DNA of 64,000 nucleotides. Source: a virus. The position numbers and the translations under genes were made by a program. Every line of letters starts with the position of its first letter. The stretch's first letter is position 1. The stretch spans positions 1 to 64,000 of the IMG/VR virus record IMGVR_UViG_3300025115_000004, one strand, 5' to 3'. This document shows, in pieces, positions 1 through 19,791 of the stretch. The notes below the pieces were generated by a model. That model was not told the origin of the DNA and ran no database searches. It saw nothing but the letters and a program-made list of their open reading frames with translations.

Positions 1-145
1 GTATTATATCAAAAATGTTAATTCACAGATAATAATAAAATTACCGAGGCAGTAAAAATATTTGCCAAAACATTTGTTTATTAAAAAAACATTACACATT
101 TTCAAAAAAATAGCATTAAAGTATTGCTAATTCAAATAATATTAC

Positions 146-153
146 TATCTTTG
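146..153 (+). promoter_or_regulatory. Bacteroidota-type -7 promoter element (TATCTTTG) upstream of the cassette array; Pc-like position
   Basis: Matches TAnnTTTG, with TTG about 19 nt upstream (124-126). Confidence 0.5.
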
Positions 154-210
154 ATATGCTTACTGAATACACTATGCTAATAAAAGAAATTATAACGGCC
201 CCAAAAGCAG

Positions 211-474
211 ATGCGATTATTCCTTCGGGTGTATTCGGTAAGCCTTCTGTTTGCGGGGCTTATATATTTTGTCATGGAAACAATCTATAAATTTAAGGGA
301 AACATTGAGGGCAAGGAGGCTATCTGTAATGTATCAGAATGTACGTTTCAGTCTAACAAACCTAATGTTATGATTTTACCCGCTGATATGTGTACTGAGG
401 AAAGCGGAATTATTAAGATAACAAAAAGGGATTTTAATTGGTTGGCAAAAAATCATAAAATAGTATATAAGTAA
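211..474 (+). CDS. Hypothetical protein (true start probably ATG 274)
   Basis: ORF track; its 5' part overlaps a hairpin at 191-264; TAATG coupling to the next ORF. Confidence 0.55.
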   Translation: MRLFLRVYSVSLLFAGLIYFVMETIYKFKGNIEGKEAICNVSECTFQSNKPNVMILPADMCTEESGIIKITKRDFNWLAKNHKIVYK

Positions 475-731
475 TGGGACGGGAAAGATGCGCAATGATT
501 GAGCAGCGTTCCGGGAAGCTGTATTGTGGATATTATGATACTGGATGTCGGCAGTGTTCTGAAATTAAAAATTGTCCTGATGGGTTAGATGATGATTCTG
601 ATTATTTTCTTGAATCAGATATTGATGAGGTAGATCCAGTCCGTACTTTGGATTGTGTTAGCGGCGTGTTTCAATGCACGCTAACGGTTCTCGCATATAC
701 GAAGTGCGGGAATTTGAAACACAAAACATGA
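474..731 (+). CDS. Cys-rich/acidic leader protein reading in frame through the first GTT site (657)
   Basis: ORF track; codon 62 is the GTT of GTTAGCG. Confidence 0.55.
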   Translation: MGRERCAMIEQRSGKLYCGYYDTGCRQCSEIKNCPDGLDDDSDYFLESDIDEVDPVRTLDCVSGVFQCTLTVLAYTKCGNLKHKT

Positions 732-810
732 ATTATGCAGAAAAGTTTATTTGAAAATGCAGAGTTTGATTTACCACAGAACCCCGCATTGCGTATATGC
801 GATGTTGTGT
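679..810 (+). repeat. attC-like site 1 (CGCTAAC...GTTGTGT)
   Basis: Arms TCGCATATACGAAGTGCGGG (691-710) and CCCGCATTGCGTATATGCGA (783-802). Confidence 0.75.
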
Positions 811-1466
811 GCAGTTGCGGCTTTTCAGACGAAAGCCCCAAAGCTCTTTTTTTTATTGAGCAAGTAGATTATCAAACAGCAATGAAAATTGTAATTAATA
901 ACCACTATTTACATAGAAAGGCACCTTGCAGTAAAGCGTATGGACTTTTTTGTAACTCCTGCAAAACTATTGTAGGTGTAGTGGTGTATGGAACTCCATC
1001 ATCTTCAACTTTAAGAATGCTTTGCGGTGATGATGAGATAAATAATGTGATTGAATTAACAAGGCTTTGGATAAAAGACGGAACACCAAAGAATACAGAA
1101 AGTTTTTTAATTGGAAACACTGTTCGTAAAGTAGATAAGGAAATTATTGTAAGTTTTGCTGATACATCAGAAAATCACTTAGGGATTGTTTATCAGGCTA
1201 CAAATTGGATTTATACTGGATTAAATGCATCAGGAACTCAGAGATTTTTAGATGGTAAACCAATAACATTTCAGGCATATAAAGACAGACAAGATATTTC
1301 AAAACTGAAAGAAATTTATGGGGATAGACTAACAGTAGGGAAAAGAACACGGAAACACAGATACATTTTCTTTAATGCAAGGGGCAATAGAAAAAAAGAG
1401 CTTTTTGAAAAATTGAAATACAAGGTTGAGCCTTACCCGAAAACTTCAATAGATGCAGGGTCGTAG
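735..1466 (+). CDS. mom: Mom-like (GNAT-fold) DNA adenine modification protein
   Basis: Motifs HYLHRK, ELTRLW..NTESFLI, SFAD...HLGIVYQATNWIYTG typical of the Mu Mom-like family. Confidence 0.75.
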   Translation: MQKSLFENAEFDLPQNPALRICDVVCSCGFSDESPKALFFIEQVDYQTAMKIVINNHYLHRKAPCSKAYGLFCNSCKTIVGVVVYGTPSSSTLRMLCGDDEINNVIELTRLWIKDGTPKNTESFLIGNTVRKVDKEIIVSFADTSENHLGIVYQATNWIYTGLNASGTQRFLDGKPITFQAYKDRQDISKLKEIYGDRLTVGKRTRKHRYIFFNARGNRKKELFEKLKYKVEPYPKTSIDAGS

Positions 1467-1473
1467 CAATTGC

Positions 1474-1538
1474 ACACAACGGATCGGTAATAAAATTGCG
1501 TTGAGGTTACGAAATGAATTTTATTATCCGTGTTAGGC
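1474..1538 (+). repeat. attC-like site 2 (ACACAAC...GTTAGGC)
   Basis: Arms GGA..TAATAAAATT and AATTTTATTATCC; canonical GTTRRRY end. Confidence 0.75.
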
Positions 1539-1576
1539 GTAGAACTTATTAGGATTTAATCACGAAATAAAAATTA

Positions 1577-1834
1577 ATGGCGATGGCAGCAATAGATAAA
1601 ATTTACGGAACCGAGGAGCAATATGCAGAATTAAAATTATGGCTTCAAAATAACAAGCCTTCTGCAATAAAATATCTTTACATGGAAGGCGGATGGATGA
1701 ATAATGAAGAAAGACCGATTAGTAATTTTCCGACAAGAATAGATAAGTGGTTGCTTAAAAACTGTTCTATCAAATGGGTGCAAGAAAGGCTAAGAGAACA
1801 ATACGGATTAAAACGCAATGAGATCACAGGCTAA
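1577..1834 (+). CDS. Hypothetical cassette protein
   Basis: ORF between GTTAGGCG (1532) and CGCCTAAC (1859). Confidence 0.7.
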   Translation: MAMAAIDKIYGTEEQYAELKLWLQNNKPSAIKYLYMEGGWMNNEERPISNFPTRIDKWLLKNCSIKWVQERLREQYGLKRNEITG

Positions 1835-1852
1835 TTTTTATTTCGGTTTTGC

Positions 1853-1984
1853 GCCTAACGGACACAAATAAATACAGAAGCGGTATGAAAAAAGAAATAC
1901 GTAAAATATTAAAGAAACTTCAAGATGGTAAGTTGGCTGTGTTTCAAGCGGAGCAGCAGCTTTTGGATTTATTTGCTGTTATAA
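1853..1984 (+). repeat. attC-like site 3 (GCCTAAC...GTTATAA)
   Basis: Arms CAAATAAATACAGAAGC and GCTTTTGGATTTATTTG. Confidence 0.7.
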
Positions 1985-2157
1985 ACTGGGTGGCGTTCGA
2001 CTTCTACAAACTTGAAACACGACCACCCAAATACGGGAGGTATCTGATATGCAGAAAAGATGGTAAAATTCATTGGGAAACTTGGAACGGGAATGGGTGG
2101 GCTTATAATCACAACGAAATTCGATACTGGGCGGAAATTAAGCCACCTTGTTTATAA
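1885..2157 (+). CDS. DUF551-like small phage protein; N-terminal 31 aa encoded inside the attC loop
   Basis: W...RPPKYGRYL...WNG.W...IRYWAEI.PP pattern; ATG 1885 is in frame with GTT 1978; its stop TAA lies in the next R'' (TTATAAC). Confidence 0.6.
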   Translation: MKKEIRKILKKLQDGKLAVFQAEQQLLDLFAVINWVAFDFYKLETRPPKYGRYLICRKDGKIHWETWNGNGWAYNHNEIRYWAEIKPPCL

Positions 2158-2251
2158 CGAATGGGGCTATGTTTTAGTTTTTGCCTTGCAGAAACTCCAT
2201 TATTTGAATAAAACTTTATAAGGCAAAAATTAAATATAGCCCGTGTTATCG
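2152..2251 (+). repeat. attC-like site 4 (TTATAAC...GTTATCG)
   Basis: Arms GGGCTATGTTTTAGTTTTTGCCTT and AAGGCAAAAATTAAATATAGCCC. Confidence 0.75.
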
Positions 2252-2268
2252 GCTTTTAATCTTTATTT

Positions 2269-3018
2269 ATGAATTTAGAAGAAAAATCAATCGAATTTAT
2301 CCGAAAAGTAGCAGAAAGTTACAAAGGACAACAATTATATGCAGGGAATAGCGGTGGAAAAGATAGTGCGGTACTTGATTACCTATTGCAAAAAAGTGGC
2401 ATAGAATACAAAAGCTACTATACCAATACAACTATTGACCCAATCGGAACTATACGCCACATAAGAGAAAATTACCCGCACACCGAAATATTGCAACCAA
2501 AACTTACCTTTTACCAATTGGTTGAAAAGAAAGGATTGCCGACTCGATTAAATCGTTATTGCTGTGAAAGATTAAAAGAGTATGGAAGTGTTGGTAAAAT
2601 AGTTTTTGAAGGAGTAAGAAGTGCCGAAAGTAGCAAAAGAAGTGGTAGAGACTACATACAATGCGACAACCGCAAATGGCAAAAAGGAAGCCAACACATA
2701 TATCCATTGTACGAATGGACTGATGAAGATATTTTAAACTTTATTGCAGAAAAAAATATACAACTTGCGCCTGCATATAGTTTAGGATTAAAAAGACTTG
2801 GCTGTGTTGGTTGCCCATTGGTAAGCAGAAAAGGACACCGACAACACGAATTTGAACTATACCCAAAATATTACGAAGCTATTAAAAAAGCAATTCAAAA
2901 AGGTATGAATAATAACCCACAATGGAAACTTACTCAATTATCAAATTGTGATAGTCAAAAAGCAATGGATTGGTGGTTAAGTGGCAAAACAATGAATGAG
3001 TGGTTTGGCTCTCTTTAA
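2269..3018 (+). CDS. PAPS reductase / PP-loop family protein (probable DNA-modification enzyme)
   Basis: SGGKDS PP-loop, RYCCERLKE, GVRSAES..R, RLGCVGCP. Confidence 0.85.
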   Translation: MNLEEKSIEFIRKVAESYKGQQLYAGNSGGKDSAVLDYLLQKSGIEYKSYYTNTTIDPIGTIRHIRENYPHTEILQPKLTFYQLVEKKGLPTRLNRYCCERLKEYGSVGKIVFEGVRSAESSKRSGRDYIQCDNRKWQKGSQHIYPLYEWTDEDILNFIAEKNIQLAPAYSLGLKRLGCVGCPLVSRKGHRQHEFELYPKYYEAIKKAIQKGMNNNPQWKLTQLSNCDSQKAMDWWLSGKTMNEWFGSL

Positions 3019-3022
3019 TTGC

Positions 3023-3063
3023 CGATAACTACCGGATAAGTTAACATCTTGTTAATTTATCCG
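3023..3063 (+). repeat. Terminal truncated attC-like site or hairpin
   Basis: CGATAAC followed by hairpin CGGATAAGTTAACA/TGTTAATTTATCCG; no following GTT. Confidence 0.55.
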
Positions 3064-3107
3064 CACAAAACAAGTGTATAGATAGAAAAAGACTTAACAT
3101 ATACAAC

Positions 3108-3245
3108 ATGAAAGACCAGACAAGACTACCAGAAGATTCCGATACAATAGTGGAGCTTATTGCTATTGTATGTGCATTCTTCATGGTTATGGGCGTGATT
3201 GCATTTATTGTGTCTATTGTATTACTTATTAAATATATTTTATGA
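3108..3245 (+). CDS. Small single-TM membrane peptide (45 aa)
   Basis: Manual translation MKDQTRLPEDSDTIVELIAIVCAFFMVMGVIAFIVSIVLLIKYIL. Confidence 0.5.
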   Translation: MKDQTRLPEDSDTIVELIAIVCAFFMVMGVIAFIVSIVLLIKYIL

Positions 3246-3415
3246 AAAAGACAGAAGTAGCAATCAGATTAACATGGAGCAAGGTAATGGCATTTATTAT
3301 CCTTGCTTGTAGTATGTTCCTTGACATAGCTATTGAAGGAAGGGCAAGCACCTTCTTTATGGCTGCGCCTCTTGCTGCCGGGCTTATTGCCGTACCATGC
3401 TTATGGTGTAGGTAA
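3242..3415 (+). CDS. Small two-TM membrane peptide (57 aa)
   Basis: ATGA overlap with previous ORF; two hydrophobic segments. Confidence 0.5.
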   Translation: MKKTEVAIRLTWSKVMAFIILACSMFLDIAIEGRASTFFMAAPLAAGLIAVPCLWCR

Positions 3416-3540
3416 ATATCACAGCCTTGGTAAGGAATACCCTATGCCTGACATCGTCCCGCCCACCAAAGAGCGGATGATAACTATAAAGAAGTTCTTA
3501 GAAGAGACTGTCCCAAACTTGACAGTCCATGTAGGATAAA

Positions 3541-3565
3541 AAAAGGCGGGATCAACCCGCCTTTT
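3541..3565. terminator. Bidirectional intrinsic terminator between convergent units
   Basis: AAAAGGCGGG-ATCAA-CCCGCCTTTT. Confidence 0.7.
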
Positions 3566-3950
3566 CTATAATCTCCTCTTTACGCTGTTTTAACCTCTGG
3601 ATCGTGTAATCAATGATTGCACAGGCCGTGTGATTAGGTAGCGTCATGTGAATAGATACTATATCCTTCAAATCTTTACTAGGATAAAACCTTGTATACC
3701 CGCAGGTAATAGGTCTGGGAAGCTCATCTGAATCCGGATCGAAGTCCATATCAGGAGGGAAGAATAGAGGTTCCATAATAGGCCTCATATTGACATCCTC
3801 AGGAAGATTTTCCATAGATATGTCCACATCTACAGGCGATTTTAACAACCTCTTACCTAGCTCTTCCAGCATAGCTATTTGAGAATCAATATACTTGATC
3901 TCCTCAAACTGCTTGGAGGCCTTCTGTAGTTTAATCAGATTTGGATGCAT
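3552..3950 (-). CDS. Hypothetical protein
   Basis: ORF track; TATATTTG promoter element at 3963-3970. Confidence 0.65.
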   Translation of the reverse strand: MHPNLIKLQKASKQFEEIKYIDSQIAMLEELGKRLLKSPVDVDISMENLPEDVNMRPIMEPLFFPPDMDFDPDSDELPRPITCGYTRFYPSKDLKDIVSIHMTLPNHTACAIIDYTIQRLKQRKEEIIEKAG

Positions 3951-3977
3951 ATGCTATTTTTACAAATATAGTGATTA

Positions 3978-4118
3978 TTAGGACTCCTGCTCATTCATAG
4001 CGCAGGGTACACAAGTCTTCAAACCATCATTGTCAGCATAGTTACATCCCTTAGACACAAGTGTCCCACATAGGGGACACTTGAATCTATAATAGGATAT
4101 CCGGATGATGAACTTCAT
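3978..4118 (-). CDS. Small zinc-ribbon protein (46 aa)
   Basis: Manual translation with CPLC...CVPC; ATGA overlap with upstream gene. Confidence 0.55.
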   Translation of the reverse strand: MKFIIRISYYRFKCPLCGTLVSKGCNYADNDGLKTCVPCAMNEQES

Positions 4119-4777
4119 ATCCTGAAGTTAGATATATGATCATATTCGGCTTTCAATACGGCCAGAGCCTGCTCAGCCTCGTACTCACTTATAGCCCAAG
4201 TCTGACGTTTCTCCCACACTTCAGAAGACTCTTCCTCTATTTTTGCCAACATCTTGTCTCTGATCACAGGAGAAGGGTAGTATCTGGTGATATTACCAGA
4301 AGGATCAATGTGCTTGATGACCATGAAACGATCAGTACCTATCTTCCTCTGATGGAGGTAATAATGGACTCTATCATGAGCCTCAGAACTGGATACACCT
4401 ATATACACCATCTCATTATCCTTGTAGACCCTGTATTTCCGGCCTTTAGGGGTCTGATCCTTACGGTTCAGAAGTTTAATAAAGTCCATAGGTTCCTCCC
4501 TTGCATCGATCTTGGTCTCAATACGCATCAGATACTGATTGTACACTACTACCTCATCAGGTTTCAGGCAGCCTCCTCTATAGATGTCGATAAAATCGAG
4601 TTCTACCAACACCAGCCTGTGCTTCTCTTTGAAGTGGGTGAAGTAACGATTAGTTTTGGGGAGATGCCCCCATTCCTCCTTACCTGACTGGGTAATAACC
4701 TTTACTTTCTCCAATTCTTTCCTCATGGCTACATCAATAACCATCTCAGTGTCGAGCGAATACATAGTCCTATCCAT
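4115..4777 (-). CDS. Hypothetical protein
   Basis: ORF track; TAGCCATG junction with previous gene. Confidence 0.7.
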   Translation of the reverse strand: MDRTMYSLDTEMVIDVAMRKELEKVKVITQSGKEEWGHLPKTNRYFTHFKEKHRLVLVELDFIDIYRGGCLKPDEVVVYNQYLMRIETKIDAREEPMDFIKLLNRKDQTPKGRKYRVYKDNEMVYIGVSSSEAHDRVHYYLHQRKIGTDRFMVIKHIDPSGNITRYYPSPVIRDKMLAKIEEESSEVWEKRQTWAISEYEAEQALAVLKAEYDHISNFRI

Positions 4778-4779
4778 GG

Positions 4780-4980
4780 CTACTCCTCCGATCTTTTTGA
4801 TTCGTTAGGTAGCACCTCTTTGATGTACCCTGAAGCATCCAGTTCACAGAGAGTCTGAAACGGGAAAAGTTTCTTGGCCTCTCTGCGAAGAAGGTTCCAA
4901 TGCTGGACATTAGTAGCCGCAGACATGTGCTTTTTTAGTTCCACAAGACTGTGGTTCACTTTCATAATAGCTTTACTCAT
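4780..4980 (-). CDS. Hypothetical protein
   Basis: ORF track; TATCTTTG promoter element upstream near 5020. Confidence 0.65.
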   Translation of the reverse strand: MSKAIMKVNHSLVELKKHMSAATNVQHWNLLRREAKKLFPFQTLCELDASGYIKEVLPNESKRSEE

Positions 4981-5069
4981 GATAAAATAGTTTAAGTTAA
5001 TACTGTAATCTTATCCCTACAAAGATAGGTAAATAAAAGATACGTACCAAATCTCTAGGTAATAATTGA

Positions 5070-19283: not shown

Positions 19284-19533
19284 ATATTCATTATATTTTT
19301 ATGCAAATGTAAATTGAATATTTTGATATTCCAAATGTTTTTTCTTTTCTCTTTCACTAATTCTATAGGATGAGTTATATTATAGTTTACATATATAAGT
19401 TATAAAATACTTTAGTATTTTATTCCTTATAGGCGCGCGCGTAAGCGCGTACACGCGCGCGATTATATATTGTATATTGGGTAGTAGCGTCCCTTGGGCC
19501 ATTGGTCGTCAGGGTTGGAATTTTCCCGAAACA

Positions 19534-19791
19534 TAAGCGGAACGCTTACATAACATAAGCGAAACGCTTATGTTACATTTATACTGATAATCAATTACTT
19601 ACTATTTTCATTATGTCGATGTAAGCTAAACGCTTACATAATGTAAGCGAAACGCTTATGTACATAAGCTAAACGCTTACATTGACATAAGCGAAACGCT
19701 TATGTTCCATATGTATTGATAATCAATCAATTATATGTAACAAAATAAAAATGTAAGCGAATCGCTTACATTTACATAAGCGAATCGCTTA
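19534..19791. repeat. Eight copies of the palindrome TAAGCG-NNN-CGCTTA, phased at ~22 bp
   Basis: Copies at 19534, 19556, 19622, 19644, 19665, 19688, 19754, 19777. Confidence 0.9.

Follow-up and report, generated by a model that had tools for sequence, protein, structure and literature searches.

Integron cassettes are usually treated as a complete open reading frame (ORF) followed by its recombination site, attC. Clusters of attC sites without an integrase (CALINs) are known in virulent phages (Qi et al. 2023, PMC9892861). Here, we describe an array of integron-like gene cassettes at positions 657 to 3029 of a 64,000-nucleotide stretch of phage DNA (the window; positions 1-64000 of the viral contig IMGVR_UViG_3300025115_000004 from IMG/VR, which is linear, 78,044 bp long, and estimated to be 94% complete). 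Four gene cassettes and one near-empty unit of 29 nucleotides (nt) lie there in a row, and the genes include a Mom-like gene, a gene for a small protein of predicted DUF551-like fold, and a PAPS-reductase-like gene. With four attC-type hairpin sites and an incomplete one (3023-3063) within 2.4 kb, and with no tyrosine recombinase in the contig, the array has the makeup of a CALIN.

As in integrons and CALINs (PMC9892861), AAC and GTT inverse cores surround imperfect palindromes that vary in sequence and keep their structure. The inverse core at the end of a cassette has its complement in the cassette's first bases, again as in integrons, and in related loci the arrays adjoin a tyrosine recombinase and a conserved docking site. 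Unlike in integrons, the hairpin lies 5' of the ORF and often contains the ORF start and 14 to 31 codons (up to ~77), all ORFs point toward the recombinase, the recombinase is a Xer-like protein of 267 amino acids, the R boxes extend to 9 to 17 nt, and the window itself is without a recombinase. The same site family is carried by Polaribacter phage P12002L, which was part of the phage-CALIN study (PMC9892861).

Two further systems come close. The ORF-11 and ORF-18 leaders of the class 1 attI1 site and the N-terminal variants of aac(6')-Ib, which are fused cassettes (PMC8876359), resemble the arrangement described here in that the crossover lies within a short ORF that has its own start signals and serves the gene behind it, with occasional in-frame N-terminal fusions. 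Those leaders lie in attI or arise via loss of attC, are rare, and mostly act by translational coupling, whereas the leader here is part of the cassette's own hairpin and is fused in frame as a rule, in about one-third of the families. The PeSLs of T4-type phages are stem-loops before small accessory genes and have been proposed to mediate the shuffling of these genes; their sequence is conserved, and they work by way of promoters and homologous recombination. The hairpins described here, by contrast, keep only AAC, GTT, and their structure. They contain the Bacteroidota -7 promoter motif TAnnTTTG about as often as chance predicts (4 observed, 3.8 expected), and the idea of a promoter in each hairpin loop was dropped. 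In the literature, we found no published description of hairpin-embedded gene starts or of a Xer-like platform, phage CALINs being the closest match (PMC9892861).

We propose, with a probability of about 0.7, that this is a Bacteroidota phage whose region 657-3029 is an integron-like cassette array lacking a recombinase, with the hairpin and its leader as part of the mobile unit and exchange at GTT as a minor route. In our model, the mobile unit would be hairpin - GTT - ORF body - AAC. The main crossover would fall between AA and C of the coding strand, which equals G and TT on the other strand, so that each hairpin would be the recombination site of the gene that follows it, probably acting as a folded single strand. 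In about one-third of the families, the loop would hold the start codon and the 3' arm would be translated, ending at the Val codon GTT; the window cases would be the Mom-like and DUF551-fold genes. Less often, exchange would take place at the coding-strand GTT, on the far side of the hairpin, and join leaders in frame to other bodies. The phage comes from lake water, its source run being a freshwater metagenome; relatives of the cassettes are found on contigs of metagenome-assembled genomes of Bacteroidota (Aequorivita, Sediminibacterium) and in the genome of a Flavobacterium isolate. With a Mom-like and a PAPS-reductase-like gene, both for DNA modification, among the cargo, a role of the system in counter-defence against host restriction is probable.

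Linkage of hairpins to the genes behind them

Sites in the window and in a comparative set of about 210 related loci (1.08 Mb) were called with a custom geometry scan (AAC, spacer of at most 8 nt, stem, gap of at most 3 nt, GTT) and not with IntegronFinder. The background of the scan in the window is ~2 hits per 128 kb; the sites had escaped an earlier, simpler attC finder. In the related loci, the gene strand had 217 sites and the opposite strand 19.

Hairpins of at least 85% identity were compared pairwise for what lies on either side of them. The downstream body was the same and the upstream context different in 65 pairs, and there was no real pair with the same upstream body and a different downstream body; six apparent pairs of the latter kind were scan artefacts spanning a whole DUF551-fold body. 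Copies of this body lose similarity right after the terminal AAC in 461 of 503 pairs. The hairpin is likewise linked to the downstream ORF in independent cassettes (L172/L176/L178, L099/L139, and L185/L194), and contigs of two wastewater studies (runs X3 and X5) contain hairpin 4 of the window together with the PAPS-reductase-like gene at ~90% identity, the similarity running from 2155/2156 to 3029. Stretches of the window without cover in runs X2 to X5 were left out as evidence.

In the first-pass annotation, the leader was regarded as a gift of the preceding cassette's attC. This view is contradicted by the pair counts and by the homology break after AAC. The hairpin stays with the downstream ORF and homology breaks at the coding-strand AAC, which argues for the leader being part of its own cassette; judged from the sequence comparison, the cassette of a gene includes its start codon and N-terminus, with the hairpin 5' of the ORF. 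It also follows that ordinary reshuffling would move leader and body together, whereas a swap of N-termini had been supposed. The cassette is the mirror image of a classical integron cassette or, read on the other strand, a classical cassette with the gene inverted.

The arrays of loci L003 and L169 are followed, just downstream, by a gene for a 267-amino-acid, Xer-like tyrosine recombinase. Among 46 viral loci with relatives of the L003 recombinase, all 91 hairpin sites lie upstream and on the same strand, with none downstream or on the opposite one; no hairpin sites were found upstream in 12 loci with distant tyrosine recombinases. In the recombinase loci, the variable cassette sequence ends in ...TAAC and gives way to a conserved stretch of ~55 nt (TACTATATGTA...) that reaches to the recombinase ATG and looks like an attI-type docking site. 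Since the conserved stretch begins exactly after AAC, the main crossover would be fixed between AA and C of the coding strand. The 267-amino-acid recombinases stay under the NCBIfam cut-offs for integron integrases, with 150 bits on TIGR02249 (cut-off, 265), where the match falls into two stretches, and 179 bits on NF040815 (cut-off, 220). They are the candidates for the acting enzyme.

The cultured phage P12002L (NC_028924) has at least eight sites of the family at 32.2-40.9 kb on the minus (early-gene) strand. One of them lies between the genes for a DNA methyltransferase (gp54) and a Mom-like protein (gp53).

Anatomy of the array and covariation of its sites

The features of the array, all on the plus strand, are as follows; repeats are given by the first positions of their two arms.

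474-731, ORF 474, an orphan of 85 amino acids; GTT 657 is its codon 62
657-685, near-empty unit, GTTAGCG (657-663) to CGCTAAC (679-685) with 15 nt between the arms; repeat 657/679, 7 nt
686-803, hairpin 1, spacer GGTTC, arms 691-710/783-802, T803
804-1480, Mom-like body, GTTGTGTGCAGTTG (804-817) to CAATTGCACACAAC (1467-1480); ORF 735-1466; repeat 804/1467, 14 nt with one mismatch
1481-1531, hairpin 2, short (51 nt) and AT-rich, contains ATG 1514
1532-1859, cassette body 2, GTTAGGCG...CGCCTAAC, own ATG 1577; repeat 1532/1852, 8 nt
1860-1977, hairpin 3 (leader), arms 1865-1881/1959-1975, loop with ATG 1885
1978-2158, DUF551-fold body, 58 amino acids, from Val32 to a stop inside TTATAAC; repeat 1978/2142, 17 nt with two mismatches (1978-1994/2142-2158)
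2159-2244, hairpin 4, non-coding, 86-nt class, fold z of -2.5
2245-3029, PAPS-reductase-like body, GTTATCGGC...GCCGATAAC, own ATG 2269, ORF 2269-3018; repeat 2245/3021, 9 nt
3030-3116, array end, TACCGGATAAG..., short hairpin at 3033-3063, no GTT

The cassette bodies are bracketed by GTTNNNN...NNNNAAC inverted repeats, and the hairpins lie between the bodies. In 5 of 5 window units, the terminal NNNNAAC is the reverse complement of the initial GTTNNNN of the same body, over 7 to 17 nt. The window hairpins are 51 to 118 nt long; in each, AAC is followed by a spacer of 5 nt and GTT is preceded by T. These traits are those of the family: in 125 non-identical sites, R'' is close to TGCNNATAAC and R' to GTTAKNNRCWG, the spacer is 5 nt in 83, the modal length is 110-119 nt, and GTT is mostly preceded by T.

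The two ends of a body vary together. Of 60 pairs of consecutive sites, 29 have at least 6 of 8 nt matching between R' of the first and R'' of the second, compared to 4.6% for random pairings and 2% for the boxes that flank one hairpin. In the DUF551-fold body, the 9 nt at either end change in concert, in six types (ATAAAC, AGCTGC, AGCCAC, AGTGGC, ATAAGC, and AAGAAC), which alters amino acids at both ends of the protein. Within the hairpins, pairing is likewise kept. The arms of hairpin 1 (20 nt, 90% complementary) differ in sequence from those of its L003 counterpart and still pair. Hairpin 3 is weak as a single fold, and its 19 relatives give a consensus stem of 15 pairs, of which 4 show double compensatory changes in spite of the 3' arm being coding sequence (LLDLFA or LLILYS). 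The evolution of the site is therefore constrained, with compensatory changes in the stem even where amino acids are altered.

At the left end, ORF 474 continues through the 29-nt mini-body into hairpin 1, passes its 5' arm, and ends 3 nt short of ATG 735; a search for homologues matched only the ORF itself. A contig of the source run ends at 686, which is an assembly branch point. One contig of run X1, the run whose assembled contigs gave all source-sample depths and joints, has a joint that goes back 388 nt (687 to 300), which may point to a tandem copy, a repeat, or a circular form of the segment left of hairpin 1. The ORF of cassette 2 (85 amino acids from ATG 1577) was assigned to no family in Pfam and PHROG searches, and Pfam assigns PAPS_reduct to ORF 2269. 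Hairpin 4 belongs to a class of 80-89 nt with a common loop motif (TTTGCCTTGCAGA...; window 2159-2244, L144, L199, and L192), which is non-coding in the examples inspected and distinct from the ~115-nt class that often contains start codons.

The right end of the array is an incomplete site (3023-3063) with AAC and a hairpin and without the GTT core. The end segment is conserved, resembles the AAC followed by TACCGTATAAAAG before the recombinase in L169, and may be a docking-site remnant. In the source sample, the contig depth of segment 3025-3116 is ~9-fold higher (228 versus ~26) and the segment is joined to another cassette end (...GCGTATAAC); it may be a conserved backbone or a docking-site remnant common to a more abundant relative.

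ORF starts in hairpins and exchange of leaders

The ORFs of the Mom-like and DUF551-fold genes begin inside hairpin loops and read in frame through GTT, exactly where the first-pass annotation had placed them: ATG 735 leads to GTT 804 as codon 24 and ATG 1885 to GTT 1978 as codon 32, the two start codons being flanked by the arms of hairpins 1 and 3. Two further crossings named there are in frame as well and mean less. ATG 1514 reads into GTT 1532 as codon 7 of a trivial, probably meaningless 12-amino-acid ORF, the real start of cassette 2 being 1577; ATG 474 reads into GTT 657 as codon 62 of an ORF without homologue. The fifth GTT (2245) is not read through; a stop follows after 4 codons and the PAPS-reductase-like gene uses its own ATG 2269.

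The same arrangement is common in the related loci. Where a body is open in frame 0 from GTT, the hairpin contains an ATG in 48 of 51 cases (9.9 expected from shuffled hairpins). Frame 0 had been observed at all four crossings; tabulated over the loci, it is indeed the commonest (22 clusters), but frame 2 occurs in 10 clusters and frame 1 in 2. Frame 1 is disfavoured by the R' consensus, because GTTAG puts a TAG stop in that frame. In 51 of 104 body clusters the gene has its own ATG downstream of GTT, and in 34 the start lies in the hairpin, and thus the hairpin loop holds the gene's own start codon in about one-third of the cassette families. The DUF551-fold cassette has an in-frame ATG and no stop in 77 of 77 copies, which represent at least 24 leader clusters. 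Relatives without a hairpin site share homology with the leaders (L093 for the DUF551-fold gene; L004 and L009 for Mom). By these alignments, the leaders resemble genuine N-termini, which would be translated.

The Mom-like ORF is a member of the Mom family (PF25680, 135 bits versus a cut-off of 27.1, E value of 2.8e-39, residues 39-236) and also matches phrog_1384. Its closest homologue (L003, 64% identity) has the same N-terminus across the Val and the same hairpin type. The extension of L004 and L009 (M..LF...C.C) is related but shorter, lacking the part that comes from the 3' arm, which in hairpin 1 is NPALRICD; more distant Mom homologues start ~8 residues before the domain, and those in cultured phages match only from residue 36-41 onward. 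The N-terminus thus appears to be the gene's own, as L003 keeps it and L004 and L009 carry a related extension, and the alignment break at the Val that had been predicted for this protein is not seen with the L003 homologue.

For the DUF551-fold protein, the predicted break is there. Many other proteins have a body that is 80-90% identical behind unrelated N-termini, with the alignment breaking at the Val. The 77 copies of the cassette combine 17 body clusters with 24 leader clusters in a many-to-many manner, bodies 100% identical over 48 nt stand behind unrelated leaders with the break 1-5 nt from GTT, and L144 and L176 have the same body behind unrelated hairpins. The leader type of the window, 31 amino acids encoded by hairpin 3, is shared by >100 proteins at 60-81% identity, and the N-terminus of L093 is homologous to it.

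The 90-amino-acid protein from ATG 1885 has no Pfam or PHROG match, and the Pfam DUF551 profile does not match it, even at an E value of 10. Its AlphaFold model (mean pLDDT, 87.8) has two N-terminal helices (2-13 and 19-32; pLDDT, 86-96), which make up the leader, and then a small beta domain. A fold search returned many DUF551 proteins (probability of ~1, TM of 0.6-0.65 normalised to the target, E values of 0.005-0.03), whereas the PDB gave nothing significant and GenBank phages no match to the protein. It is DUF551-like by predicted fold only. L169 has a second, diverged DUF551-fold cassette directly after the first (1768-2085), with covarying ends GTTAAGAAC...GTTCTTAAC and a 38-amino-acid, hairpin-encoded leader.

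In-frame swapping at the Val is real, but it is a minor route over the default of leader and body moving together; it may be a site-specific event on the other strand. Breaks are not confined to AAC. The right end of the contig (L002 13866-14044; contig 77,866-78,044) has a second arrangement of window sequences 742-867 and 1533-1579. There, DNA downstream of the helicase (...CAACAAATA) is joined to TTAGGCG between 1532 and 1533, in a copy of the 5' leader of cassette 2, the ATG of which leads directly into codon 2 of the Mom-like gene. The depth of this variant in the source run is 19, compared to 15 for the window arrangement. With these junctions, breaks also occur between G and TT of the coding strand and at start codons. 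L098 (4172) and L150 (501) do not differ from one another in the hairpin, the R' box, and the 5' leader as far as the ATG, but have different ORFs from there on; therefore, some exchanges apparently take place at the start codon rather than at AAC or GTT.

It is imaginable that the hairpins are two-sided junctions, at which AAC moves genes with their leaders and a minor, site-specific crossover at GTT joins hairpin-encoded N-terminal modules to unrelated bodies in a frame-preserving shuffling of domains. We put this forward tentatively and rate its chance at somewhat below even. If true, it may show how genes first become cassettes, by a hairpin being built around an existing N-terminus. A site that lies before its gene, overlaps the coding sequence, and is translated would make one stretch of DNA both a folded recombination substrate and a protein N-terminus. 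It would also explain N-terminal peptides common to unrelated phage proteins and offer a frame-preserving way to new proteins. The relatives without a hairpin site, with homologous N-termini minus the stem arm, bear on the question of how genes acquire attC sites.

Competing explanations and further observations

Several observations weigh against our model. The extra unpaired bases sit on the AAC-side arm of the hairpins, which in the geometry of classical attC sites would predict the opposite polarity; the mechanism may differ from that of IntI. A PF00589 search of the whole 78-kb contig found no tyrosine recombinase and two complete relatives that were searched encode none either, and therefore, the acting enzyme must come from elsewhere or the array must be frozen. 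The codon changes in the leaders are close to neutral (321 synonymous versus 889 non-synonymous, with position 2 less variable in the leader family), GTG 807 and GTG 1990 could be internal starts, and the leader swaps could result from homologous exchange within the conserved R' box of 9-17 nt. Furthermore, when P12002L_attC1, the only site of the family tested in the literature, was assayed with IntI1, no recombinants were obtained; it was the single site on which IntI1 failed (PMC9892861).

The near-neutral codon changes and the two GTG codons would also fit if the through-reading ORFs were annotation artefacts, with true starts at GTG 807 (Mom) and GTG 1990 (DUF551-fold) and untranslated hairpins. 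We consider this unlikely. Both GTGs are conserved, but they lie in the R' inverted repeat, and their conservation is explained at the DNA level. That the Mom domain begins at residue 39 and that its homologues in cultured phages match from about there agrees with a downstream start; L004 and L093, which have no hairpin site, nevertheless have homologous N-termini and no alternative start. An untranslated hairpin also leaves the open frame with ATG behind unrelated leaders and the excess of hairpin ATGs in frame-0 bodies without explanation, and the leader is predicted as two confident helices.

Less probable still is that the hairpins are RNA elements (translational control, processing, or terminators) of a phage operon and that the shuffling is ordinary phage mosaicism by homologous recombination at conserved linkers between genes, as with the PeSLs of T4-type phages. 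The mom gene of phage Mu is controlled through an RNA stem-loop, and the hairpins here enclose start codons in a phage that has no recombinase. Some breakpoints, moreover, are at start codons and not at AAC or GTT (L098/L150 and the right-end variant). The hairpins are, however, too diverse for homologous exchange, and yet breaks are exact at AAC or GTT. Covariation of body ends over 300-800 nt is needed by a circular cassette and lacks an RNA rationale, the association with one recombinase family is tight and one-sided, and an Rfam scan of window 1-5000 (E value up to 10) gave no relevant family.

Classical polarity, with the hairpin as attC of the upstream cassette and with the Mom-like and DUF551-fold genes borrowing start and N-terminus from the neighbour, is the least credible explanation: the array looks like ORF-then-site, the 5-nt spacer and the extra bases resemble the top-strand arm of a classical attC, and there are sharp breaks at GTT such as the variant junction between 1532 and 1533, but hairpins are not linked to upstream bodies, the similarity of DUF551-fold copies ends at AAC, and the conserved site beside the recombinase is bounded there as well. 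The forward primers in Table S3 of Qi et al. (PMC9892861) appear to carry bottom strands, judged from the aadA7 control row; if so, the coding strand of P12002L_attC1 would be the bottom strand, which also speaks against classical polarity.

Elsewhere in the contig, the helicase has no relatives among the viral contigs searched, and the 729-amino-acid ORF of the late (structural) gene block has no match in GenBank phages. A cluster of palindromes before the packaging genes (window 19532-19706; TAAGCG-N3-CGCTTA) was also caught by the hairpin scan and is unrelated to the cassette sites.

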